A DNA stretch of 64,000 bases, from assembly GCA_037574385.1 (NCBI GenBank), contig GCA_037574385.1_4529.1; one strand, given 5' to 3'. This stretch comes from a phage. Positions 23,984 to 37,067 of this stretch are shown here, piece after piece. The notes beneath the pieces were generated by a model, which saw only the letters and a list, made by a program, of their open reading frames with translations, ran no database searches and was not told the DNA's origin. Each line of letters opens with the position of its first letter. The first letter of the stretch is position 1. The position numbers and the translations under genes were made by a program.

Positions 23984-24248
23984 AAAGCTCGACTACCTCT
24001 TCGTTTTCAGCTTCAAATTGGTCACGAGCATCTTTATGATAAAGAGCTAACAAACGATTAAACATTTTTCCATCGACGCCAAGCTCTTCTTTAGCACGAG
24101 TACGAATGTCTTTAATCAGTTCATTATAACCAGAAATTTTAAGTTTGTTATCGGAAGCTTCCTTGACTAGTTTAGCCAGTTCTTCACCATGCACATCTTG
24201 ATTAAATTCAACTGCTTCTTTCTTAGCCATGTTTACCTCAGAATTCAT
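23961..24248 (-). CDS. dsbA: dsDNA-binding protein DsbA (late transcription enhancer)
   Basis: 95 aa; position between 33 and rnh as in T4. Confidence 0.5.
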   Translation of the reverse strand: MNSEVNMAKKEAVEFNQDVHGEELAKLVKEASDNKLKISGYNELIKDIRTRAKEELGVDGKMFNRLLALYHKDARDQFEAENEEVVELYDTVFTK

Positions 24249-25155
24249 TAATTACACTTGTTAATTTAGAAAGTCCAGATTTTACAAAGTACGAATAAAT
24301 CTTGCCTTTAGGTTGTGGTTTATATGAGTTATAATACTCTATAATGGTTGAAGCAATATTATCAGGGATATAATCAAAATCAATTAGAACCAAATTTTCT
24401 TGGTACCGTTTATATTCTTCTGCACTTAATAATACTTCAGCTTGAGAACGGTCATTAGCAATTGCTTCAATAATCGTTGTTTTCATGCTTGGAGTTCGTT
24501 CGCCTTCAACTCGAGTAAACCAGAAATCACCACGAACTCGAACAGACGCAACACCATCTTTACGGTCGCCTTTAAGAATTTTAGTCATGCAATCAATTTC
24601 GGCAGAACCATTCTTAATTTTAACCCATTTTTTCTGCGGTGGCGACCACTGTTTAACGTTAGGGTATTTGTGTAATTGTGTAAAGTCACCATCTGATGCA
24701 ACAATACACACCTTATGACCGGCTAATGACAAATATTTAGTTAATACACCGATATGGTCATCTGCTTCGTATTTGTCAATATCCATTACAACGTATGGCA
24801 TATATTTCTTAATCTCATCAACGACTTGATGGAGTGCAGTAAAATATCCTTCCCAATCCCACTTTGAAGCTTCACGATCGGTTTTACGATTTTTCTTATA
24901 ATAGTAAGCAAAGTCGCGTCGCCAATACCCAGAAGTAGCGTTATCCATGCACAATACAAATTTTGTATAACCTTGCTTACGGAACATCACTACGTTTTTA
25001 CGAATTGAATTCAAGATTACATGGCGAACCATCGGAACAGTAATTTTATCACCGTCTTCAAAGTTGTTTAATGCAGCTGCTAATGCAATGTTACTAAAGT
25101 CTGCAAGTGCAATACCTTCTTTGTAATCTTCATCCAACATCATTTCTAAATCCAT
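24238..25155 (-). CDS. rnh: RNase H / 5'-3' flap exonuclease
   Basis: 305 aa, same as T4 RNase H; divergently oriented from gene 34 as in T4. Confidence 0.8.
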   Translation of the reverse strand: MDLEMMLDEDYKEGIALADFSNIALAAALNNFEDGDKITVPMVRHVILNSIRKNVVMFRKQGYTKFVLCMDNATSGYWRRDFAYYYKKNRKTDREASKWDWEGYFTALHQVVDEIKKYMPYVVMDIDKYEADDHIGVLTKYLSLAGHKVCIVASDGDFTQLHKYPNVKQWSPPQKKWVKIKNGSAEIDCMTKILKGDRKDGVASVRVRGDFWFTRVEGERTPSMKTTIIEAIANDRSQAEVLLSAEEYKRYQENLVLIDFDYIPDNIASTIIEYYNSYKPQPKGKIYSYFVKSGLSKLTSVINEF

Positions 25156-25188
25156 ATGAACCTCTTGTTCAGTTAGTCAACTTGGACT

Positions 25189-25217
25189 ATAGTAACATAC
25201 TAGTTCGAAAGCGTAAA
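25189..25217 (-). promoter_or_regulatory. Early promoter for rnh (divergent from gene 34 late promoter)
   Basis: ATTTACG-N18-TACTAT-AGTCC on - strand in the rnh/34 divergent intergenic region. Confidence 0.4.
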
Positions 25218-25243
25218 TAGTCTTTTACTCATTTATAAATAGT

Positions 25244-25251
25244 AAAATAGA
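25244..25251 (+). promoter_or_regulatory. Late promoter (TATAAATA) for gene 34 operon
   Basis: Exact TATAAATA about 25 nt upstream of gene 34 ATG, followed by SD AAGAGGA. Confidence 0.6.
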
Positions 25252-25275
25252 ACACATAATGATAAGAGGACTACC

Positions 25276-28200
25276 ATGGTTGACATCAAACGTAAGTTCA
25301 GGGCCGAAGATGGTCTTGACGCAGGCGGTGATAAGATAGTTAACGTTGCGCTTGCTGACCGCACAGTTGGCACCGATGGCGTGAACGTTGACTTTTTGGT
25401 GCAAGAAAACACCGTACAGAATTATGACGAGACGCGCGCGTATACAAAAGATTTTATTGTTCTTTATGATAATCGTTTTTATCAAGCTTTAAACGATATT
25501 CCAGCTCCGGCAGGCCCTTTCTCTTTGGCTAAATGGAAGGCAACTCGTACAGATGCAGAATGGATTACAGTTCAAGGCGGAGATTTCCAATTATCAGTAG
25601 GTAACTCTATCGCGGTTGATACTTCAGCTGGCACTGATATTAATTTCACTTTGCCTCAAAATCCTTTAGATGGCGATACAGTTATTTTGTCTGATATTGG
25701 TGGTAGAGTAGGCTATGTAAAAGTTCAAATTACTGCAGAGGCTCAAAGTATTGTAAACTTTAGAGGACAACAGGTTCGTTCAGTTTTAATGACGCACCCA
25801 AAATCTAAAATGGTCTTCATTTTTAGCAACCGCCTATGGCAAATGTATGTTTCTGATTACGAACGTAATGCAGTCACAGTAACTCCTGCTAAGCCATATC
25901 AGGCGCAACCTAATGATTTTATCATTCGACGTTTTACATCAGCCGCTCCTATTAATATTACATTGCCTCGTAATGCTAATAATGGCGATATTATTAATTT
26001 AGTTGATTTAGACAAATTAAACCCATTATATCACACAATTGTCAAAACTTACGATGAAACAACTTCTATACGAGAAGCTGGTGTTCATGTAGCAGAAGGA
26101 CGTAATACTGCGGAAGCATTCTTTGTTTATGATTCTGCTAATAGCTTATGGCGTGTTTGGGAAGGTGACCAGAAATCTCGTTTACGTATAGTTCGTAATG
26201 ATACTGATTTACACCCTAATGAAGAAGTTCTTGTTTTTGGAACTAATAATGATACAATCTCGACGGTAAATCTTACTTTGCCTACAGATATTTTGTCTGG
26301 CGATACTGTTAAAATATCGTTGAATTATATGCGTAAAGGGCAAACTGTAAAAATTAAAGCTGCTGAAGGCGATACAATTGCTAGCAGTATTTCTTTATTA
26401 CAGTTCCCAAAACGTTCGGAGTATCCACCTGATGCACAATGGGTTTCTGTTAGTGAGCTGGAATTTAATGGTGATACTTCGTATGTACCTGTACTTGAGT
26501 TAGCTTATATAGAAGATTATTCATCTGAAACAAAATATTGGGTAGTTCAACAAAACACCGTAACCGTCGAACGAGTCGATGCATCGAGCAATACAACTAG
26601 AGCTCGTTTAGGTGTTATTGCGCTTGCTTCTCAAGCGCAAGCAAATGTTGATTTAGAAAATGCTCCTGGTAAAGAACTGGCTATTACTCCGGAAACATTA
26701 GCAAATCGTACAGCAACTGAAACTCGTCGTGGTATTGCTCGTATTGCAACAACTGCACAAGTTAACCAGAATACCGATTTTGCATTCCAAGACGACTTGA
26801 TTATTTCTCCTAAGAAATTGAACGAACGTACAGCAACTGAAACCCGTAGAGGTGTTGCTGAAGTTGCAACTCAGGCTGAAACTAATGCTGGCATAGATGA
26901 TACCACTATTATTACTCCTAAGAAATTGGATGCCCGTCAAGGTTCTGAAGTTTTATCTGGTATTGTAAAATACACATCTACGACTGGTACTACAGCTGCT
27001 ACTATTCGTGGTAATGCTGGGACTAACGTTTATAACAAAGCTGTAGATAATTTAACTATTTCTCCAAAGGCTCTTGACCAGTATAAAGCTACCCCTACTC
27101 AACAGGGCGCAGTAATTCTTGCTATTGAAAGTGAAGTTATCGCTGGCGAATCACAAGCTGGTTGGGCTAATGCTGTAGTGACCCCTGAAACTCTGCATAA
27201 GAAAACTTCTACTGATGGGCGTATTGGTTTAATTGAAATTGCTACGCAAGCAGAAACTAACACTGGAATTGATTATACTAGAGCAGTAACGCCTAAGACG
27301 TTAAATGATAGGAAAGCTACGGAAGGATTATCCGGCATAGCCGAAATTGCTACGCAAGTTGAATTTGATACTGGAACTGACGATACTCGTATCTCGTCTC
27401 CACTGAAAATTAAAACTCATTTTGATTCTTCTGACCGTACCAGTGTTAATTCTGATTCCGGACTTATTGAAGAAGGAACCTTGTGGAACCATTATACTCT
27501 TGATATTTCTAAAGCAAATGAAACACAACGTGGTACACTTCGCGTAGCAACCCAAGCAGAATCTAATGCAGGAACTTTAGATGATGTTCTTATTACTCCT
27601 AAAAAGCTTTTAGGGACTAAGTCCACTGAAACGTCTGAAGGCGTAATTAAGGTTGCTACTCAGGCTGAAACTGTAACAGGAACTTCTGCTAATACTGCTG
27701 TATCTCCTAAGAATTTAAAATGGATTGTCCAGAATGAACCAACATGGGCTGCTACTACTGCAATAAGAGGTTTTGTTAAAACTTCATCAGGTTCAATTAC
27801 ATTCGTTGGTAATGATACAGTTGGTTCAACACAACCTTTAGAATCATATGAAAAAAATAGCTATGCGGTGTCACCATATGAATTAAACCGTGTACTTGCT
27901 AACTATTTGCCATTGAAAGCTAAAGCCGTAGATAGTAATCTGTTAGATGGTCTAGATTCTCTTCAGTTCATCCGTAGAGACATCGACCAGACGGTTAATG
28001 GTTCTTTAAGTCTTACTAAGCAGACCAACCTGAGTGCTCCTTTAGTATCTACAAGCACTGCTTCTTTTGGGTCCGAAGCATCTGTTACTCGTAGATTAAC
28101 TCTTAACGACTCTAGCGGTTCTGAAATAGTTTTCACTAAAGGAACCCAATCTCTTAGTAATAAAGAGAATTTCGTTGTTAGAGCATGGGGTAATAGCGCT

Positions 28201-29109
28201 ACAGATGGTGCCCGTGATACAGTATTTGAAGCGGGTGACGAAACAGGATACCATTTCTATTCTCAGCGCGCTTCTGATAATAAAGTATCATTTAATATTA
28301 ATGGAACACTTTATTCAACAGGCATTGTTTCTACAAATGGATTAAATGTTACAGGTGTTTCTACCTTTACCGGGCCTATTAGTGCTACAGGCGAAATTGT
28401 TTCTAGTTCTCCTATTGCATTCAGAGCTATTAACGGTAACTATGGTGTTATGCTTTATAATGCTGGTGACAGTTCTTATATTGCATTAACTAACTCAGGT
28501 GACCAGACCGGGACGTTTAATAACTTACGCCCGATCACGATTAACAATGCCACAGGATTAGTTCGTCTTGACAATGGTGTTCAAATCACAAGTGGTGCAA
28601 CAATAACTACCGGTGGGTTAACTGTAAATAACAGAATTATTTCTAACGGCGTTAAAACTGCCACGGTTTATACCGATAAACCAACAGCTTCTACTGTAGG
28701 TTTTTGGTCTATTGACATTAACGATTCTGCTGTATATAGCCAATTCCCTGGATATTGGACGCGTGATAACAAAGGTAACCGTGACCAAGAAATTAAATAT
28801 CCTGGTACTTTGACTCAATTTGGTAATAGCTTAGATTCGCTTTATCAGGATTGGATTTGTTATCCTACTGGTGCAAATGGTGGTAGTATTCGATATACTC
28901 GTACCTGGCAGAAAAATAAAGATGCTTGGACCTCATTTGCAATGGTATTTGATAGTGGCAACCCACCTTCACCTAGCGATGTCGGTGCTATCCCATCCGA
29001 TAATGCTGTGATTGGAAACCTTACTGTTCGAGACTTCTTACAATTAGGAAATGTGAGAATTGTTCCAGACCCGGTTAACAAAACCGTTAAATTTATATGG
29101 GTTGAATAA
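25276..29109 (+). CDS. 34: Long tail fibre proximal subunit gp34
   Basis: 1277 aa; internal tandem about 40-aa repeats (TATETRRG-A-IAT-AQ/E..); first gene of the + strand fibre operon with late promoter TATAAATA upstream. Confidence 0.85.
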   Translation: MVDIKRKFRAEDGLDAGGDKIVNVALADRTVGTDGVNVDFLVQENTVQNYDETRAYTKDFIVLYDNRFYQALNDIPAPAGPFSLAKWKATRTDAEWITVQGGDFQLSVGNSIAVDTSAGTDINFTLPQNPLDGDTVILSDIGGRVGYVKVQITAEAQSIVNFRGQQVRSVLMTHPKSKMVFIFSNRLWQMYVSDYERNAVTVTPAKPYQAQPNDFIIRRFTSAAPINITLPRNANNGDIINLVDLDKLNPLYHTIVKTYDETTSIREAGVHVAEGRNTAEAFFVYDSANSLWRVWEGDQKSRLRIVRNDTDLHPNEEVLVFGTNNDTISTVNLTLPTDILSGDTVKISLNYMRKGQTVKIKAAEGDTIASSISLLQFPKRSEYPPDAQWVSVSELEFNGDTSYVPVLELAYIEDYSSETKYWVVQQNTVTVERVDASSNTTRARLGVIALASQAQANVDLENAPGKELAITPETLANRTATETRRGIARIATTAQVNQNTDFAFQDDLIISPKKLNERTATETRRGVAEVATQAETNAGIDDTTIITPKKLDARQGSEVLSGIVKYTSTTGTTAATIRGNAGTNVYNKAVDNLTISPKALDQYKATPTQQGAVILAIESEVIAGESQAGWANAVVTPETLHKKTSTDGRIGLIEIATQAETNTGIDYTRAVTPKTLNDRKATEGLSGIAEIATQVEFDTGTDDTRISSPLKIKTHFDSSDRTSVNSDSGLIEEGTLWNHYTLDISKANETQRGTLRVATQAESNAGTLDDVLITPKKLLGTKSTETSEGVIKVATQAETVTGTSANTAVSPKNLKWIVQNEPTWAATTAIRGFVKTSSGSITFVGNDTVGSTQPLESYEKNSYAVSPYELNRVLANYLPLKAKAVDSNLLDGLDSLQFIRRDIDQTVNGSLSLTKQTNLSAPLVSTSTASFGSEASVTRRLTLNDSSGSEIVFTKGTQSLSNKENFVVRAWGNSATDGARDTVFEAGDETGYHFYSQRASDNKVSFNINGTLYSTGIVSTNGLNVTGVSTFTGPISATGEIVSSSPIAFRAINGNYGVMLYNAGDSSYIALTNSGDQTGTFNNLRPITINNATGLVRLDNGVQITSGATITTGGLTVNNRIISNGVKTATVYTDKPTASTVGFWSIDINDSAVYSQFPGYWTRDNKGNRDQEIKYPGTLTQFGNSLDSLYQDWICYPTGANGGSIRYTRTWQKNKDAWTSFAMVFDSGNPPSPSDVGAIPSDNAVIGNLTVRDFLQLGNVRIVPDPVNKTVKFIWVE
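26690..27720 (+). repeat. In-frame tandem repeats (about 40 aa / 120 nt unit) inside gene 34
   Basis: Protein motif TATETRRG(I/V)A-(I/V)AT-A(Q/E)-N-(G/T)-D recurs at least six times with ITPKKL-type linkers. Confidence 0.6.
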
Positions 29110-29117
29110 GAGGTTAT

Positions 29118-30242
29118 ATGGAAAAATTTATGGCAAGGTTTGGACAGGGATACGTCCAAACGCCATTTTTATCGGAAAGCAATTCAGTTAGATTTAAACT
29201 AAGTATAGCGGGTTCATGCCCGCTTTCAACAACTAATCCGTATATTTTGTTCCAAAATGAGCCTTTAGGGTTGCAGTCTTTTGGTATTGGACTAAATGTT
29301 AGGGTAATAAATCCGGAAAATGGAACTATAGTTGATAGTAAATTATACAATTTTGCGCCTACAAATAATGCAACTTCAGCTGCATTTATTTCGTTTGTTA
29401 ATACATACGCAGATAATTTCATTTTCGCATTTATTTCTAATAACAAATTTAATTTGCCGCCAGAAATAATTGAATGGTTTAAAGCTGCTGGGAGTTCAGT
29501 TATACCGTCAATTGAAGTTGCTAGTCTTGTTGATATTTCATATTCAGCGTTTTATGTTTCAGGTAAAAATACTATTGCATTAGAACACATAAAATACAGT
29601 AATAAGAAAACAATTTCGGATTACTCAACTCCATTAGATATTGTATATGACTCTATTGCTGATATAGGTGCTACCGGCTATCCTAGACGTACATATGAAG
29701 CTCTAGAAACGTTTTTATCTCCTGTTGGAGGAACTAACAATGAAATAAAAAGGGTGCCTACATCATCCCTTGTTACTCCTATCGCAAACTATGGATTAAA
29801 GCCTACAGATTTTCTTTATTTGAAATTTCAATTAATGGCTGATGAAGCATTACTAGAGGAAGGAACCACAAGACTTTCAATTCGTTTCTTTAAGTCTCCA
29901 TCTAGCTCTCCTATATCGTCTAAAGATATAAACTTTGACGGAACTGCTGGTGAATGGAAGCTATATGAAGAATACGTTGAAATACCAGCTGAAGCCGATG
30001 GCTTTACAGTATATTGTTACCGTACGGCCCCAGTCGGTCAAGGTGGACTAAGAAATGTTATTTTTACTGAAGTATCATGTAACGGAAGTATAGCAAAACC
30101 TGCCGAGTTTGGCCTAAATGGTATTCGTGCTAATTACATCGATGAATCATTAACCGGTAATGATATAATGGACTTGCCTACTCAGTTATCTAACGACACA
30201 GGTAAGGTATTTGGGCAGGAATTTAAAGAGTACACAGAATAA
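29118..30242 (+). CDS. 35: Long tail fibre hinge protein gp35
   Basis: 374 aa; position and size as T4 gp35. Confidence 0.75.
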   Translation: MEKFMARFGQGYVQTPFLSESNSVRFKLSIAGSCPLSTTNPYILFQNEPLGLQSFGIGLNVRVINPENGTIVDSKLYNFAPTNNATSAAFISFVNTYADNFIFAFISNNKFNLPPEIIEWFKAAGSSVIPSIEVASLVDISYSAFYVSGKNTIALEHIKYSNKKTISDYSTPLDIVYDSIADIGATGYPRRTYEALETFLSPVGGTNNEIKRVPTSSLVTPIANYGLKPTDFLYLKFQLMADEALLEEGTTRLSIRFFKSPSSSPISSKDINFDGTAGEWKLYEEYVEIPAEADGFTVYCYRTAPVGQGGLRNVIFTEVSCNGSIAKPAEFGLNGIRANYIDESLTGNDIMDLPTQLSNDTGKVFGQEFKEYTE

Positions 30243-30265
30243 AGGAGGCTTCGGTCTCCTTTTCG
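30243..30265 (+). terminator. Intrinsic terminator-like hairpin after gene 35
   Basis: + strand GGAGGC-UUCG-GUCUCC followed by UUUUCG. Confidence 0.5.
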
Positions 30266-30267
30266 CG

Positions 30268-30275
30268 TATAAATA
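30268..30275 (+). promoter_or_regulatory. Late promoter (TATAAATA) for gene 36
   Basis: Exact TATAAATA about 27 nt upstream of gene 36 ATG, after the gene 35 terminator hairpin. Confidence 0.6.
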
Positions 30276-30301
30276 CTTTAATATTAATAAGGAGACACGA
30301 A

Positions 30302-30958
30302 ATGGCCGATTTAAAAGCCGGAAGTACAGTTGGTGGTTCCGTCATATGGCATCAAGGCAATTTTCCTTTAATGCCAGCTGGCGATGACATCCTATATAAA
30401 ACATTTAAATTATACACTGAATATAACAAGCCAAAAGCGGCTGATAACGATTTCGTATCTAAAGCAAACGGCGGGACATATCTCAAAAAGGTAATCTTTA
30501 ACGAAGGTGTTGCAGTCAAAACAGCTGATGACCAAACGAATGGTATTTTTTCTGGTGGTGGTGACGCCGCGACATTCGACCAAACAAACATGGATATTGT
30601 TTCGTGGTATGGTATTGGGTTTAAATCATCTCAAGGTACCGGTGAAAGAACTGTTGTAATTGATACTCGCACCGGTAATATAAGTTCTAAAGGCGTTATT
30701 GAAGCATCTCAATTCAGAGCCACAACGTTAGCACCTTTAAATAATTACGACCTTACTCGCAAAGATTATGTTGATAGTCAAATAAATACAGTTAATGCTA
30801 ATGCAAACAGTCGTGTACTCCGTTCAGGAGATACGATGACCGGCGCGCTAACAGCCCCAAACTTTTTCTCACAGAATCCTGCATCTCAACCCGCGCATGT
30901 TCCACGATTTGACCAAATTGTTATTAAGGATTCTGTTCAAGATTTCGGCTATTATTAA
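30302..30958 (+). CDS. 36: Long tail fibre distal connector gp36
   Basis: 218 aa; preceded by TATAAATA late promoter and SD AAGGAGA. Confidence 0.75.
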   Translation: MADLKAGSTVGGSVIWHQGNFPLMPAGDDILYKTFKLYTEYNKPKAADNDFVSKANGGTYLKKVIFNEGVAVKTADDQTNGIFSGGGDAATFDQTNMDIVSWYGIGFKSSQGTGERTVVIDTRTGNISSKGVIEASQFRATTLAPLNNYDLTRKDYVDSQINTVNANANSRVLRSGDTMTGALTAPNFFSQNPASQPAHVPRFDQIVIKDSVQDFGYY

Positions 30959-30966
30959 GAGGACTT

Positions 30967-33900
30967 ATGGCTACTTTAAAACAAATACAATTTAAAAGAA
31001 GCAAAACTGCAGGAGCACGTCCTGCCGCTTCAGTATTAGCCGAAGGTGAATTGGCTATAAACTTAAAAGACCGTGTACTTTTTACCAAAGATGACCAAGG
31101 AAATATTATTGATCTAGGTTTTGCTAAAGGCGGTAGTATTGACGGGAATGTTATTCATACAGGCAATTATAACCAAACCGGCGATTATACTTTAAATGGC
31201 GTCTTCACTCAGACTGGTAATTTTAATTTAACTGGTATTGCTCGAGTAACTCGTGATATTATCGCCGCTGGGCAGATTATGACTGAAGGCGGAGAACTTA
31301 TTACAAAAAGTTCAGGTACAGCACATGTTCGTTTTTTCGATAACAATAGCCGCGAACGTGGAATCATTTATGCCCCGGCTAATGATGGTTTAACTACACA
31401 AGTACTTAATATCAGGGTTCAAGACTACGCCGCTGGTGATGAAAGCACCTATGCATTTTCGGGCAGTGGACTATTTACTTCACCTGAAGTATCAGCATGG
31501 AAATCTATTTCGTCTCCACAAATTCTGACCGACAAAGTTATTACAAATGGGAAGAAGACAGGCGATTATGACATCTATTCATTATCAAATAACACTCCAT
31601 TGGCAGAAAGCGAAACGGCTATTAACCACCTCCGTGTTATGCGAAATGCTGTAGGAGCAGGTATTTTCCACGAAGTTAATGTTAATGACGGAATAACCTG
31701 GTATTCCGGAGATGGCTTAGACACTTATCTTTGGTCGTTTACCTGGTCCGGTGGATTGAAAGCCGGTCATTCTATCGCTGTAGGTCTTCCAGGCGGTCCA
31801 AAAGGATATTCTGAATTAGGAACGGCCTCAATTGTTCTTGGTGATAATGATACCGGATTTAAGTGGCATCAGGATGGATATTTCCATACAGTAAACAACG
31901 GAACAAAAACTTTCATTTACGGTCCTGCGGAAACACAAAGCCTTAGAAAAATGGTTATGGGTTATTCTCCAGATGGGCTTCTTATGACAACGCCACCGAC
32001 AGAAAACTATGCTTTGGCCACTGTTGTTACTTACCATGATAATAACGCATACGGCGACGGTCAAACTCTTTTAGGTTATTACCAAGGTGGTAATTATCAT
32101 CATTATTTCCGCGGTAAGGGTACTACAAACATTAATACTCACGGCGGTTTGTTGGTTACTCCTGGTAATATTGACGTTATTGGCGGTTCTGTTAATATAG
32201 ATGGTAGAAATAATTCTTCTACACTAATGTTTAGAGGCAACACAACAGGATACAGCTCGGTTGATAATATGGATATTAAAGTTTGGGGTAATACGTTTGT
32301 TGATCCAAGCGGAGGTACCCGTAAAAACATTATGGAAATTTCTGATGCAACTAGCTGGATGAGCTATATTCAAAGACTTACTACTGGCGAAGTAGAAATG
32401 AACGTTAATGGTTCATTTGAATCATCTGGTGTTACTGCTGGAGATAGAGGAGTTCACACAACAGGTGAAATTTCATCTGGAGCAGTGAATGCTCTTCGTA
32501 TTTGGAACGCAGATTATGGAGCCATTTTTAGACGTTCAGAAGGCAGTCTTCATATTATTCCAACTGCTTATGGTGAAGGTAAACACGGTGATATCGGTCC
32601 ACTTCGCCCGTTTAGTATGGCTTTAGATACTGGTAAAGTTACTATTCCAGATTTACAATCAAGTTACAATACGTTTGCTGCGAATGGCTATATTAAATTT
32701 GTTGGTCATGGAGCAGGCGCTGGTGGTTATGATATTCAATATGTTCAAGCAGCTCCTATTTTCCAGGAAATTGACGATGATGCTATAAACAAATATTATC
32801 CTATTGTTAAACAGAAGTTTTTAAACAGTAAAGCTGTTTGGTCTTTAGGTACTGAAATTAATTCGGGTACATTTGTTTTACACCATATCAAAGAAGATGG
32901 TTCACAAGGCCATACATCAAGATTTAACGCTGACGGTACAGTTAACTTCCCGGATAACGTTCAAGTCGGTGGCGGTGAAGCTACTATTGCTCGCAATGGT
33001 AATATCTGGTCTGATATCTGGAAAACGTTTACTTCTGCCGGTGATACTACAAATATTCGCGATGCTATTGCGACTCGTGTTTCGAAAGAAGGCGACACGA
33101 TGACCGGCAAATTGACTTTATCTGCAGGTAACGATGCCCTTGTTTTAACTGCAGGTGCTGGTGCTTCATCACATATCCGTAGTGATGTAGGTGGTACAGG
33201 TAATTGGTATATAGGCAAAGGCGGTGCCGACAATGGTCTAGGTTTTTACAGTTACATTACACAAGGCGGTGTATACATAACAAATACCGGTGAAATATCG
33301 CTTTCTCCTCAAGGACAAGGAACATTTAATTTTAATAGAGACCGCCTTTATATAAATGCTAGTCAATGGGTTGCACATAAATCTGGCGCTTGGGGCGACC
33401 AATGGGGCTTAGAAGCTCCTGTATTTGTGGATTTTGGCTACGTCGGTAATGATAGTTATTATCCTATTATCAAAGGAAAATCAGTTATTACTAATGAAGG
33501 ATTTGTATCAGGCGTTGATTTTGGTATGCGCCGTACCCCTAATATGTGGGCACAAGGTATTATCCGTGTAGGCAACCAGGAAAACGGTTCAGACCCACAA
33601 GCCATCTATGAATTCCACAGTAACGGTACTTTTTATGCCCCTAGCCTACTTAAGAGCAATAGAGTATCAGCAGGTGGCGGTGACCCCGTATGGGCCGGGC
33701 CATGTATTGTTCTTGGCGATAATGACACAGGTCTAGTTTGGGAAGCAGATGGTATTTTCAACGCATACGCAAACGGACAAGGCGTGTTTAGTTTTAGAGC
33801 TGGTCTCGCACAAACATTTGGTAACGTATCTTTAAACGTTAACGCAGGTATGTATGTTCGTGATAACATTGATGTTAACGACGTTTATATCCGTTCTGAT

Positions 33901-34215
33901 ATTCGCTGTAAGTCAGAAATTAAGCTTATTAAGAACGCTCAAGAGAAATCTAAACTCTTAGGCGGCTATACTTATCTGCTTAAAAACTCTGTTACAGACG
34001 AAGTTAAACCATCTGCAGGTTTAATTGCTCAGGAAGTTCAAGAAGTATTGCCTGAACTTGTTTCTGAAGATAAAGAGACCGGACTGCTTCGTTTGAACTA
34101 TAACGGTATTATTGGTTTAAATACTGCCACTATCAACGAGCATACTGACGAAATCAAGGAATTGAAATCTGAAATTGCTGAGTTGAAAGCATTAATTAAA
34201 TCATTGATAAAATAA
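30967..34215 (+). CDS. 37: Long tail fibre distal subunit gp37 with C-terminal intramolecular chaperone domain
   Basis: 1082 aa; C-terminus carries the SD-R-K auto-cleaving chaperone-type motif (SDIRCKSEIK ... GLIAQEVQEVLPELV ... coiled-coil tail). Confidence 0.8.
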   Translation: MATLKQIQFKRSKTAGARPAASVLAEGELAINLKDRVLFTKDDQGNIIDLGFAKGGSIDGNVIHTGNYNQTGDYTLNGVFTQTGNFNLTGIARVTRDIIAAGQIMTEGGELITKSSGTAHVRFFDNNSRERGIIYAPANDGLTTQVLNIRVQDYAAGDESTYAFSGSGLFTSPEVSAWKSISSPQILTDKVITNGKKTGDYDIYSLSNNTPLAESETAINHLRVMRNAVGAGIFHEVNVNDGITWYSGDGLDTYLWSFTWSGGLKAGHSIAVGLPGGPKGYSELGTASIVLGDNDTGFKWHQDGYFHTVNNGTKTFIYGPAETQSLRKMVMGYSPDGLLMTTPPTENYALATVVTYHDNNAYGDGQTLLGYYQGGNYHHYFRGKGTTNINTHGGLLVTPGNIDVIGGSVNIDGRNNSSTLMFRGNTTGYSSVDNMDIKVWGNTFVDPSGGTRKNIMEISDATSWMSYIQRLTTGEVEMNVNGSFESSGVTAGDRGVHTTGEISSGAVNALRIWNADYGAIFRRSEGSLHIIPTAYGEGKHGDIGPLRPFSMALDTGKVTIPDLQSSYNTFAANGYIKFVGHGAGAGGYDIQYVQAAPIFQEIDDDAINKYYPIVKQKFLNSKAVWSLGTEINSGTFVLHHIKEDGSQGHTSRFNADGTVNFPDNVQVGGGEATIARNGNIWSDIWKTFTSAGDTTNIRDAIATRVSKEGDTMTGKLTLSAGNDALVLTAGAGASSHIRSDVGGTGNWYIGKGGADNGLGFYSYITQGGVYITNTGEISLSPQGQGTFNFNRDRLYINASQWVAHKSGAWGDQWGLEAPVFVDFGYVGNDSYYPIIKGKSVITNEGFVSGVDFGMRRTPNMWAQGIIRVGNQENGSDPQAIYEFHSNGTFYAPSLLKSNRVSAGGGDPVWAGPCIVLGDNDTGLVWEADGIFNAYANGQGVFSFRAGLAQTFGNVSLNVNAGMYVRDNIDVNDVYIRSDIRCKSEIKLIKNAQEKSKLLGGYTYLLKNSVTDEVKPSAGLIAQEVQEVLPELVSEDKETGLLRLNYNGIIGLNTATINEHTDEIKELKSEIAELKALIKSLIK

Positions 34216-34220
34216 TAAAA

Positions 34221-34240
34221 GGGCCTTCGGGCCCTGGAGG
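34221..34240 (+). terminator. UUCG-tetraloop hairpin after gene 37
   Basis: + strand GGGCC-UUCG-GGCCC, followed by SD GGAGG of gene 38. Confidence 0.5.
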
Positions 34241-34245
34241 TTTTT

Positions 34246-35025
34246 ATGGCAGTAGTAGGAATACCTGGTTGGATTGGAACATCAGCAGTGGCTGAAACAG
34301 GTCAACGTTGGATGTCAGCAGCTTCTAGAGAATTACGTCTAGGGAACCCATCTTGGATGTCACAATTCGCTGGACGTTCAAGAGAAATTATTCACACTCT
34401 TGGAGCAGACCATAACTTTAATGGTCAATGGTTCCGTGACCGCTGTTTTGAAGCCGGTGGCGCTCCTATAGTGTTTAATATCACAGGCAACTTAGTATCA
34501 TATTCTAAAGACGTTCCTTTATTCTTCATGTATGGTGATACTCCTAACGAATATGTTACTTTGAATATTCATGGTGGTGTTCATATGTGGGGCCGAGGTG
34601 GTAATGGTAGCGTAAATGGAAGCCCAGGCACTAATGGCGGCGACGTAATCCAAAATGATATTGGTGGACGACTTCGCATTTGGAACTATGGCGTTATTGC
34701 ATCAGGTGGCGGTGGCGGGGGTGCAGTGTCGTTAAAGAATAGCTGGGATGCGTATGCTACAGCTGGTGGTGGCGGTGGCAGGCCATTTGGTCTTGGCGGC
34801 GGCGGTGTTAATTGGCCTGGTGGCAATGCTAGTTATGACGGTCCAGGTGGTGGCGGTAATACAAGTCAATTTGGTGGCGGCAATGGCGGTGATGCTGGGG
34901 GTGCTGGTGGTGACGGATGGGGCAGTCACTTATCTAGATCTGGGGGTGGTGCTCCTGGTAGAGCAGTATTCGGAAGTTCACCTTCATGGGGTGCTACAGG
35001 CACAATCTACGGCTCCTGGATTTAA
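34246..35025 (+). CDS. 38: Tail fibre tip adhesin gp38 (T2-type, glycine-rich motifs)
   Basis: 259 aa; multiple poly-Gly blocks (GGGGGG, GGGGG, GGGG) separating short variable segments, as in T2-family gp38 adhesins. Confidence 0.75.
34660..34960 (+). repeat. Glycine-codon-rich low-complexity segments in gene 38 (GGTGGCGG-type repeats)
   Basis: Poly-Gly runs encoded by repeated GGT/GGC; this also explains the spurious overlapping ORFs on both strands here. Confidence 0.6.
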
Positions 35026-35044
35026 ACGATAATACCTCTCAATT

Positions 35045-35052
35045 ATAAATAT
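35045..35052 (+). promoter_or_regulatory. Late promoter (TATAAATA) for holin t
   Basis: Exact TATAAATA immediately upstream of SD GGGAGG and the t start codon. Confidence 0.6.
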
Positions 35053-35058
35053 TGATAA

Positions 35059-35730
35059 ATGGGAGGTAATATGGCAGCACCAAAAGTATCATTTTCGCCT
35101 AGTGATATTTTATTTGGGTTGCTAGACCGCATTTTCAAAGATAACGCCTCTGGAAATATTCTTATTTCCAGAGTTGCTGTTGTAGTTCTTTTGTTCCTAA
35201 TGGCACTAATATGGTACAAAGGGAGTATTTTTATGGATTATTACGTGAGGTCGAAATATGATACTTACACAGAAGTAATTCAAAAAGAAAGAAATACACG
35301 ATTTGAATCTGCGGCTTTAGAACAACTACAAATAGTCCACGTCACATCAAGGGCGGATTTTAGTTCGGTGTATTCTTTCAGACCTAAAAATCTAAATTAT
35401 TTCGTCGACCTTATTGCGTATGAAGGTAAGTTACCTAGCACAGTAACTGAAAAATCTATGGGAGGATTTCCTGTCGATAAAACTACAGCAGAATATTCGG
35501 TCCATTTAAGTGGACTTCACTTTACTTCTAAAACAGATTTTGCTTTCTTACCTACCAAATCAAAAACTCCGGAACTGGCATATATGTATAGTTGTCCTTA
35601 CTTCAATTTGGATAACATATATGCTGGAACTGTTTCTATGTATTGGTATAAGGGGTCGGATGTGTTAAATGAAGAACGCTTGGCAGCAATATGCAACCAA
35701 GCAGCAAGGATATTAGGGCGGGCTAAATAA
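35059..35730 (+). CDS. t: Holin T
   Basis: 223 aa; close match to T4 T holin (SFSPSDILFG.LDR.FKDNA.G, YMYSCPYFNLDNIYAGT, AARILGRAK). Confidence 0.9.
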   Translation: MGGNMAAPKVSFSPSDILFGLLDRIFKDNASGNILISRVAVVVLLFLMALIWYKGSIFMDYYVRSKYDTYTEVIQKERNTRFESAALEQLQIVHVTSRADFSSVYSFRPKNLNYFVDLIAYEGKLPSTVTEKSMGGFPVDKTTAEYSVHLSGLHFTSKTDFAFLPTKSKTPELAYMYSCPYFNLDNIYAGTVSMYWYKGSDVLNEERLAAICNQAARILGRAK

Positions 35731-36003
35731 TTAGTTGTTAGAATACATCGTCAAATGGCGATAAATATTTTCAAAACCTTCATTGAATTCACTAATCAGT
35801 GTTTTCTTTTCTTCGGCAGTTAAATTTGTAATTAGTTTTCTGAACGAATTCTGATTTAGCTGCCGACCATCTTTTTTAATTCCAATCTCATTCAAGAATC
35901 CGATGAAATTTGCTCGGTCTTCAACAATATCTTCCCTAGAGAATTTAATCAAAATAGAAGCAATAGTAATAATTTCACGTACGATTTCAATGTCTTTATT
36001 CAT
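35731..36003 (-). CDS. asiA: Anti-sigma-70 factor AsiA
   Basis: 90 aa, same as T4 AsiA; near-identical sequence (VREIIT.ASILIKFSREDIVE.RANFI.FLNEIG). Confidence 0.9.
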   Translation of the reverse strand: MNKDIEIVREIITIASILIKFSREDIVEDRANFIGFLNEIGIKKDGRQLNQNSFRKLITNLTAEEKKTLISEFNEGFENIYRHLTMYSNN

Positions 36004-36009
36004 AACGTT

Positions 36010-36065
36010 TTATTCATTCCATTTGGTTGATACGAGTATAGTACCATTATCAGTGTTGATTGTAA
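36010..36065 (-). promoter_or_regulatory. Early promoter module upstream of asiA
   Basis: GTTTACAATCAACACTGATAATGGTACTATACTCGTATCAACC...ATG. Confidence 0.5.
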
Positions 36066-36250
36066 ACAGCTTTTTCTACACTTTTAACGTAATCAATGTA
36101 GTCTTCCTGTTCATACGAGTGTAAGGCCAAGAACGTGGCTAATAGTTCATTATAGACTAAAGCCTCACGCTCACGTTCTGCCTCTACTACGTTCTGAAGA
36201 TTATGGCTCATATCATTCCTTATAACTATCAATGTAGTCCTGTATGTCAA
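36050..36250 (-). CDS. Hypothetical protein
   Basis: 66-aa ORF between asiA and the arn candidate. Confidence 0.4.
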   Translation of the reverse strand: MTYRTTLIVIRNDMSHNLQNVVEAEREREALVYNELLATFLALHSYEQEDYIDYVKSVEKAVYNQH

Positions 36251-36500
36251 AGAATGACATTTCGTATTCTAGGACATTAAGAGCCCGTTCTTCAGTATAG
36301 TCAGAACCAAAGACGATAGTGATTTCACCAGGCTTCATATGATTGAAATCGACACTAAAAGGAATACGAGAACATACTTCGTCTGCCATATCTGCAACAA
36401 CACTACGATATACTTCTCGGTTAACCTGATAAAGCTCTGCAAGTTCTTCACAACGAATAACAAGTTCAGTGGCAGGATTTTCTTTGATTTTAGTAAGCAT
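36213..36500 (-). CDS. Acidic small protein; positional candidate for Arn (anti-restriction, McrBC inhibitor)
   Basis: 95 aa (T4 Arn 92 aa), strongly acidic; lies between asiA and motA as arn does in T4. Identity unverified. Confidence 0.4.
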   Translation of the reverse strand: MLTKIKENPATELVIRCEELAELYQVNREVYRSVVADMADEVCSRIPFSVDFNHMKPGEITIVFGSDYTEERALNVLEYEMSFFDIQDYIDSYKE

Positions 36501-36574
36501 AGTCTTTACCCTTATGTTTTTGTTTGCGTTTAGATTGAAGTTCTGATTTCTTCTTGTCCTTATGGACAGAAGCC

Positions 36575-36802
36575 TTATTGAAATCGTGTTTTGCTACAAG
36601 ATTGTTCATAATGATTTATAACCTCATTTAAACATTTATCGGTAAAAGAAAACTTTTTAGCCACAGAACATTCGATAATGTGCTCTTTCAAATCTTTAGG
36701 GTCGGTATAACCCATCTCAGTAATAAAGTGGCGAATTAAAGCTTTATTCTTATCATTAACAGAATTAAAATAATCTGCTTTAGAATCAATTATTCTCATC
36801 AT
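36575..36802 (-). CDS. Hypothetical protein
   Basis: 75-aa ORF. Confidence 0.45.
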   Translation of the reverse strand: MMRIIDSKADYFNSVNDKNKALIRHFITEMGYTDPKDLKEHIIECSVAKKFSFTDKCLNEVINHYEQSCSKTRFQ

Positions 36803-37067
36803 CTAATTTCCTTAATTGATATTGCAGCGAGCTAATAATTTCTTCGTTCATTTTAATATACATGTCACGCAAGAAAGGTTTTAACCCTTCACGAATAATT
36901 GCTAATGTGTCACCTTTACATAGATTGACCAAATAAGGGTGATCTAAAGCGTCCCAACCAGGCTGATTAGCATACATGCCATAGTTTTCTTCCATCATAT
37001 GATTAAGACGTTTGATATCTTGGATACGTGATTCAATAGCATCTTTCTGGAGTTGTTTAATATTCAT
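36786..37067 (-). CDS. Hypothetical protein
   Basis: 93-aa ORF. Confidence 0.45.
   Translation of the reverse strand: MNIKQLQKDAIESRIQDIKRLNHMMEENYGMYANQPGWDALDHPYLVNLCKGDTLAIIREGLKPFLRDMYIKMNEEIISSLQYQLRKLDDENN

Follow-up and report, generated by a model that had tools for sequence, protein, structure and literature searches.

The window, a 64,000-nt stretch of phage DNA (NCBI GenBank assembly GCA_037574385.1, contig GCA_037574385.1_4529.1), was analysed around two adjacent long-tail-fibre genes, 37 and 38. The open reading frame (ORF) of gp37 lies at window positions 30967–34215 on the + strand and encodes 1082 residues; that of gp38 follows at 34246–35025 on the same strand and encodes 259 residues. 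Gene order, domain content, motifs, homology to solved structures and a mosaic ancestry were established for the pair, which is very probably the receptor-recognition module at the distal end of the long tail fibre in a T-even phage of T2-like, as opposed to T4-like, type belonging to the genus Mosigvirus.

gp37 ends in an S74-type intramolecular chaperone (IMC) domain comprising residues 977–1082 (33895..34215 including the stop codon, + strand; 106 residues, 11.75 kDa). Pfam Peptidase_S74 (PF13884, ‘chaperone of endosialidase’) matched residues 977–1032 with a score of 45.4 bits (cut-off 22, E=9.7e-12) over profile positions 1–57 of 58, in the extreme C-terminal region of a protein that ends at residue 1082. 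The junction reads ...NDVYIR976/S977-D978-I-R980-C-K982; S977 and K982 are five residues apart with R980 at S+3, and the catalytic spacing is thus present. A sequence-only reading of this DNA had proposed an SD-R-K chaperone-type domain at the end of gp37, and the Pfam match and this spacing bear it out. At S+4, where Leu or Ile is usual, there is a Cys. Identity of the domain to its counterparts is 98% for phage AlbertHofmann, 51.9% for S16 and 36% for T2. The C-terminal 25 residues of gp37 (EIKELKSEIAELKALIKSLIK), a putative helix, look amphipathic and align, by sequence only, with the C-terminus of the S16 IMC.

In endosialidase NF (endoNF) the catalytic dyad is S911/K916 (PMC8326128). In MyRF it is S587/K592 with R590 contributing, and mass spectrometry located the cut N-terminal to the serine, between P586 and S587 (PMC8326128, PMC3742443). 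The S16 gp37 site is DLNVS^SDRRIKK and has been aligned to DVYIR^SD of the fPS phages (PMC7917993). By homology, the scissile bond of gp37 is predicted to be R976–S977, with an error of one residue possible. The predicted products are a mature chain of 976 residues (104.6 kDa) and a chaperone of 106 residues (11.75 kDa), from a precursor of 116.4 kDa.

The segment preceding the chaperone, residues 912–976 (33700..33894, + strand), is assigned as the fibre tip and gp38 docking site on the basis of homology to 6F45_A, with the role taken from PMC7917993. Tip and IMC together (residues 912–1082) align with the crystallized S16 gp37 fragment 6F45_A with E=5.6e-30. The tip ends in DVYIR976, the predicted mature C-terminus, and DVYIR is common to T2, T6, fPS-2, ESh27 and FL33. 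Residues 666–911 (32962..33699, + strand) form a distal shaft cassette that is swapped relative to Shigella phage ESh27; its best protein matches are AlbertHofmann (87.9%), fPS-2 (74%) and T6 (51%). Residues 1–665 (30967..32961, + strand) make up the shaft of the distal half-fibre in its proximal and middle parts and carry the backbone allele, with 98.5% identity to Mosigvirus ESh27 at the protein and DNA levels alike. A first blastp impression that gp37 was unrelated to ESh27 over its full length was ruled out by this match, only the distal third being swapped.

The two Pfam matches of gp38 together span the entire protein. The attachment domain Gp38_N (PF21721; 74 bits, cut-off 25, E=8e-21) covers residues 1–42 (34246..34371, + strand) and contains W9, W22 and W37. 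Residues 47–259 (34384..35025 including the stop codon, + strand) match GP38 (PF05268; 274 bits, cut-off 25, E=1e-81) and are the receptor-binding domain, predicted to be a β-helix and polyglycine II (PGII) sandwich. The Pfam E-values of gp37 and gp38 lie well outside what chance would give. The best solved match was the PP01 receptor-binding domain 9V85_A (E=4e-74 over residues 40–258), from the crystal structure of an sfGFP fusion of the OmpC-binding PP01 adhesin (PMC12892980); S16 gp38 (6F45_D) matched residues 8–259 with E=2e-50. According to the authors of 6F45, three tryptophans act as prongs that insert into gp37 (PMC6851490). W9, W22 and W37 align with the S16 tryptophans and are present in every sequence covering the N-terminus in an alignment of ten adhesins. 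Glycine makes up 26% of gp38 and 38% of residues 117–245, with runs at G154–159, G174–178, G184–187 and G201–204, and 31 glycine columns of the receptor-binding domain are invariant across the ten adhesins. A PGII sandwich fold is inferred from the ~55% identity of gp38 to the 9V85 receptor-binding domain.

Window gp37 and gp38 were compared with the T2 and T4 tip types. T2 gp38 is 50.6% identical to window gp38 over the full length. T4 gp38 gave nothing significant against window gp38 in blastp (best E=0.13) and nothing at E<=1 against the whole window in tblastn. T4 gp37 aligns solely through its residues 1–743, at 34.7% identity, to window gp37 residues 1–640; it gave no match to residues 666–911 or 976–1082, and an internal segment (T4 residues 299–327) gave a weak 29-residue match within residues 912–975. 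The C-terminus of T4 gp37 carries Collar, Phage_fiber and eight HxH motifs and no S74 domain, whereas the Pfam and motif scan of window gp37 found no HxH motif and neither Collar nor Phage_fiber. The S74 domain is present in the gp37 of T2, T6 and ESh27, and the layout of a gene 37 with IMC followed by gp38 and holin t also occurs in T2, T6, AlbertHofmann, ESh24, FL33 and fPS-2. A note in the T4 RefSeq record states that the ‘gp38’ of the T2 subfamily is unrelated to T4 gp38 and is an adhesin. The alignment with T2, T6 and T4 gp37 and gp38 that had been suggested as a check on the sequence-only reading therefore returned a T2-type match and no T4-type tip. The T2-type designation stands for the S74 domain and the gp38 family, with the nuance that the chaperone domain is nearer to that of S16 (52%) than to that of T2 (36%). 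The same reading had made gp38 the tip adhesin rather than an assembly chaperone. Homology to the S16, PP01 and T2 adhesins, with none to the T4 chaperone, supports the first part; the second may be too exclusive, because T2-type gp38 may also aid assembly before remaining on the fibre (PMC7917993).

Five receptor loops, A–E, were mapped onto gp38 by alignment from PP01 gp38 (PMC12892980), all on the + strand. Loop A (residues 122–127, SVNGSP; 34609..34626) differs from OmpF-binding relatives at S122 and S126. Loop B (residues 163–172; 34732..34761) is the most diverged. Its residues K164, D168, A169 and Y170 differ from AlbertHofmann, FL33, fPS-2 and ESh27 (LQNSWAPNAT), the changes from the window to AlbertHofmann being K164Q, D168A, A169P and Y170N; loop B is the same in the window and in ESh24. 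Loop C (residues 186–190, GGVNW; 34801..34815) is the same as in OmpF-binding relatives. Loop D (residues 205–209, NTSQF; 34858..34872) has N205 in place of their Tyr, and loop E (residues 223–231, DGWGSHLSR; 34912..34938) has S227 where all five close relatives, ESh24 included, have Asn. Among the ten sequences every one of the 35 loop columns varies, whereas 46 of the 143 columns of the whole receptor-binding domain are invariant. Between this domain and that of AlbertHofmann there are 11 substitutions, eight of which fall within the 35 loop residues out of 143 (binomial p=0.001). Their concentration in the loops supports specificity carried by the segments between the glycine runs, and agrees with the earlier proposal that these variable segments are the likely host-range determinants. 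The residues likeliest to tune host range would be 122, 126, 164, 168–170, 205 and 227.

Over the whole of gp38 the identity is 99.2% with Shigella phage ESh24, 95% with AlbertHofmann, 91% with fPS-2 and 90% with FL33; for the receptor-binding domain it is 92.3% with AlbertHofmann, 91.6% with fPS-2 and 90.2% with FL33. AlbertHofmann (Bas47, Mosigvirus) depends on ompF, as demonstrated by genetic complementation (PMC8594841). FL31, FL33 and FL34 require OmpF, with a minor effect of TolC (PMC12032242), and the receptors of fPS-2 and fPS-90 are OmpF plus the lipopolysaccharide (LPS) core (PMC7917993). In the npj Viruses study, adhesin phylogeny predicts the receptor (PMC12032242). By this sequence relationship window gp38 probably binds OmpF, an assignment that we regard as moderately secure. 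It is no firmer than this because of the loop differences and because single substitutions in adhesin loops are reported, in the introduction of the same paper, to change receptor choice (PMC12032242).

The following mechanism is proposed. gp37 would be made as a 116-kDa precursor whose C-terminal 106 residues, the IMC, would drive and check trimerization of the fibre shaft. Once the trimer had folded, the S977/K982 dyad would sever the R976–S977 bond; departure of the chaperone would expose a triangular tip ending in DVYIR. One gp38 molecule (26 kDa; calculated 26.1 kDa) would then cap the trimer, the three tryptophans (W9, W22 and W37) in the helical domain at its N-terminus entering three equivalent pockets. 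The rest of gp38 would form a β-helix and a polyglycine II sandwich built from the invariant glycine motifs, and the five variable loops on the distal face of the sandwich would contact the receptor in the outer membrane, for which the porin OmpF is the most probable candidate. Several points weigh against this reading. Cleavage, virion composition, stoichiometry, docking and receptor are all argued from homology. The gp37 tip (residues 912–976) is only 29% identical to the crystallized S16 tip, so the docking geometry is extrapolated. In loop B, four of the ten residues are unlike those of every relative whose receptor is known, and there are differences in loops A, D and E too. For ESh24, which has the closest adhesin, no published receptor was found.

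A T4-like arrangement, with receptor binding by the C-terminus of gp37 and with gp38 serving only in assembly, as a chaperone that the virion lacks, would have the gene names and order of T4 in its favour, together with the labels ‘assembly chaperone’ or ‘assembly catalyst’ on several database homologues. These labels are legacy annotation carried over from T4, and with a gp38 lacking similarity to T4 gp38 and a gp37 that has an S74 domain and no needle this arrangement is very improbable. It is also highly unlikely that the S74 domain has lost cleavage and remains on the fibre as a relic, in which case gp38 could not dock as in S16. The Cys at S+4 and the predicted status of the cleavage would speak for a relic, but Ser, Arg and Lys are all at the catalytic spacing, the domain is 98% identical, Cys included, to that of the viable, OmpF-dependent AlbertHofmann, and it can be aligned over its whole length with the IMC of S16, for which autocleavage is reported (PMC7917993). 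The chance that the glycine-rich frame is a low-complexity compositional artefact with no real gene is negligible. The 38% glycine, the strong GC skew and the spurious overlapping ORFs in other frames might suggest one; against this stand the full-length family and crystal-structure matches, the GGAGG ribosome-binding site 5 nt before the gp38 ATG and the homologues found in 808 phage records. The local GC content of 0.51 and GC skew of +0.35 at 34500–34999 follow from the glycine-rich coding of gp38. Short ORFs overlapping 31800–35032 on either strand gave no Pfam family match; as genes, these overlapping and antisense frames were rejected for that reason and are read as by-products of composition.

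With a T2-like tip module as the preferred reading of the architecture, the alternative that carries most weight concerns the receptor, which instead of OmpF might be Tsx, OmpA, OmpC, FadL, LPS or a porin allele of Shigella or another enterobacterium. Set against all OmpF-verified relatives the loops carry eight substitutions, four of them in loop B, and small changes in loop segments are reported to be able to switch receptor (PMC12032242, introduction). The only near-identical adhesin is that of ESh24, a Shigella phage without a known receptor, and loop B of T2, which uses FadL (PMC8594841), starts similarly (LKNS...). On the other side, similar adhesins share a receptor and phylogeny is predictive (PMC12032242), and the window groups with the OmpF set at 90–92% identity in the receptor-binding domain; identity to the adhesins of T6 (Tsx), PP01 (OmpC), T2 (FadL) and S16 (OmpC) is only 48–57%, and loop C is the same as in the OmpF group. 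A receptor other than OmpF is accordingly considered unlikely, although it keeps an appreciable share of the probability. The PP01 paper gives no OmpF contact residues, since it treats OmpC alone (PMC12892980). We put forward as a doubtful possibility that K164, D168-A169-Y170 and N205, found in the window and in ESh24, together with the window-only S227, may retarget a scaffold of the OmpF group to another receptor or porin allele.

The predicted OmpF-binding module was compared with five known systems. AlbertHofmann (Bas47) shares the genus-level backbone and gene order, with gp36 and the holin region ~98–100% identical at the DNA level. Identity is ~88–89% over window gp37 residues 666–975 and only 66–84% at the DNA level over residues ~80–400. 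Its receptor is experimentally known (PMC8594841), whereas that of the window is predicted. The architecture predicted for the window is that of the S16 tip (PDB entry 6F45), in which gp37 forms a trimer, its IMC cleaves itself off and a single gp38 carries the three docking tryptophans, β-helix and PGII sandwich. S16 gp38 is only ~45–48% identical to that of the window, the residue before the catalytic serine is Ser in S16 (DLNVS/SD) and Arg in the window (DVYIR/SD), and S16 binds Salmonella OmpC with a loop B that is five residues shorter. PP01 gp38 (9V85) shares the β-helix and glycine motifs, and loops A–E can be mapped one to one, but all five differ in sequence, and some in length, from those of the window. 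PP01 binds OmpC of Escherichia coli O157 (PMC12892980).

T2 gp37 likewise terminates in an S74 domain (E=3e-15) and shares the motif VYIRSDIR.KS with window gp37; T2 gp38 has both Pfam domains of window gp38, and the order of the genes agrees. T2 gp37 is 1341 residues long and only ~33% identical to that of the window, and the T2 receptor is listed as FadL in the BASEL paper (PMC8594841). T4 has the same operon position, homologous gp34–36 and a homologous first ~640 residues of gp37, and a hairpin between genes 37 and 38. It differs in that its gp37 Collar and HxH needle bind the receptor directly and its gp38 is an unrelated chaperone of 183 residues.

The architecture, structure and mechanism of such a tip are already established for T2, S16 and PP01, so the module is a textbook tip and raises no new biological question. 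What is individual to it is limited to the distal cassette of gp37, which is without a close relative, and the loop B variant shared with ESh24. The analysis gives the host-range determinant of the phage its correct annotation and amends legacy ‘assembly chaperone’ labels on homologues. The OmpF prediction and the residues named above would be of modest value in host-range prediction for phage therapy or in loop-swap engineering. Many deposited homologues of gp38 still bear the name ‘long tail fiber assembly chaperone’ or ‘distal long tail fiber assembly catalyst’, which was passed on from T4 gp38, a protein unrelated to them; the annotation error is thus widespread.

The module is recombinant. 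DNA identity to ESh27 is 98.5% over 24001–32962, no similarity to ESh27 was detectable over 32963–34243, and identity is 93.9% over 34244–37000. A finer mosaic map was obtained by a 100-nt identity scan. The intervals 33200–33600 and 33900–34100 are 93–97% AlbertHofmann-like, no relative exceeds ~86% over 33600–33900, 34100–34700 is 98–100% like ESh24, a Tequatrovirus, and the Mosigvirus backbone resumes from ~35100. Relative to ESh27, the tract from ~32900 to ~34450 (gp37 residue ~645 to gp38 residue ~70) has been replaced, and it carries the distal shaft, tip, chaperone and gp38 attachment domain together. Among phage records the best DNA match to 32963–34243 was 89% and the best match to the whole module was 90.4%. 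Recombinational shuffling of gp37 and gp38 genes has been described before (PMC7917993; PMC12032242, introduction).

In all nine genomes examined, the IMC subtype and the subtype of the gp38 N-terminus go together. An S16-like IMC ending in ...ELKALIKSLIK is paired with one gp38 N-terminal subtype in the window, ESh24 and AlbertHofmann, and S16 is similar. A T6-like IMC ending in ...KIARKISKYFKF is paired with its own gp38 N-terminus in T6, fPS-2, FL33 and ESh27, and T2 has a pair of its own. The pairing could reflect linkage, the segments being 30 nt apart, or co-adaptation; nine genomes are too few to tell. Taken jointly with the retargeting of the loops, and equally tentatively, the movement of tip, IMC and gp38 attachment domain as a unit could reflect structural co-adaptation beyond mere linkage.

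The exact gp37 and gp38 proteins are already in the NCBI database as EMS9118400.1 and EMS9118401.1, the latter under the name ‘receptor-recognizing protein’. Their record is a 168,592-bp contig filed under Escherichia coli, which suggests an apparently complete phage genome of ~168.6 kb within bacterial isolate data, with no named phage record. gp37 is the sole member of its own 90%-identity cluster, none of ~15 billion proteins being more than 90% identical to it; the corresponding gp38 cluster has 123 members, FL31 among them.

Upstream lie the tail-fibre operon members gp34 (25276–29109) and gp35 (29118–30242), followed by gp36 (30302–30958) directly before gp37. The order gp34-35-36-37-38-t, with holin t last, is that of the canonical T-even long-tail-fibre late operon, and all neighbours match the expected T-even family (Pfam or PHROG). 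The 22 kb around the module are 97.7% identical to Shigella phage ESh27 (Straboviridae, Tevenvirinae, Mosigvirus), and the gp34, gp35, gp36 and holin proteins are 98–99.7% identical to their ESh27 counterparts.

The T4-type late promoter motif TATAAATA occurs at 30268..30275 on the + strand, upstream of gene 36. Sites on this strand start at 25234, 30268 and 35044, just upstream of gp34, gp36 and t. No + strand site was found between gp36 and gp38; with no further motif before gene 38, genes 36, 37 and 38 probably form a single unit of late transcription. Across the window the motif shows no enrichment (six found, 7.3 expected) and its positions alone are informative. In the fPS-2 record, late promoters are annotated at two corresponding positions.

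The 30-nt spacer between gp37 and gp38 contains an intercistronic hairpin, AGGGCC-UUCG-GGCCCU (34220..34235, + strand), and the GGAGG of gene 38 follows directly at 34236–34240. Its minimum free energy is −14.3 kcal/mol, a stability that does not differ significantly from that of shuffled sequence (z=-1.65). A GC-rich hairpin is found at the same gp37–gp38 position in all nine T-even phages aligned, T4, T2 and T6 included, with stems of different, mutually compensating sequence; support for the hairpin comes from this positional conservation across phages and not from its stability. It resembles the long-known C(UUCG)G intercistronic hairpins of T4 mRNA. Its putative role is in transcript stability or translational coupling.

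The mechanical ORF of holin t starts at 35059 and has 223 residues. Near it, the TATAAATA motif ends at 35051 and a GGAGG lies at 35062–35066; alignment with the holins of T4, T2 and ESh27 begins only at residue 5 of the mechanical ORF. From the positions of promoter, GGAGG and alignment, the predicted start of holin t is almost certainly the ATG at 35071, giving 219 residues.

Two observations concern the remaining fibre proteins. The first links 32320–32616 (gp37 residues 452–550) with 28126–28569 in gp34. A Gp34_trimer-like domain (Pfam PF21446) lies inside gp37, and T4 gp37 residues 466–637 also match window gp34; by these two matches the proximal and distal half-fibres share a duplicated module. 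In gp35, residues 58–131 (29289–29510) gave a weak Pfam match to ILEI, ‘interleukin-like EMT inducer’ (30.2 bits, cut-off 27, E=6.5e-7), which probably reflects a shared small β-rich fold.

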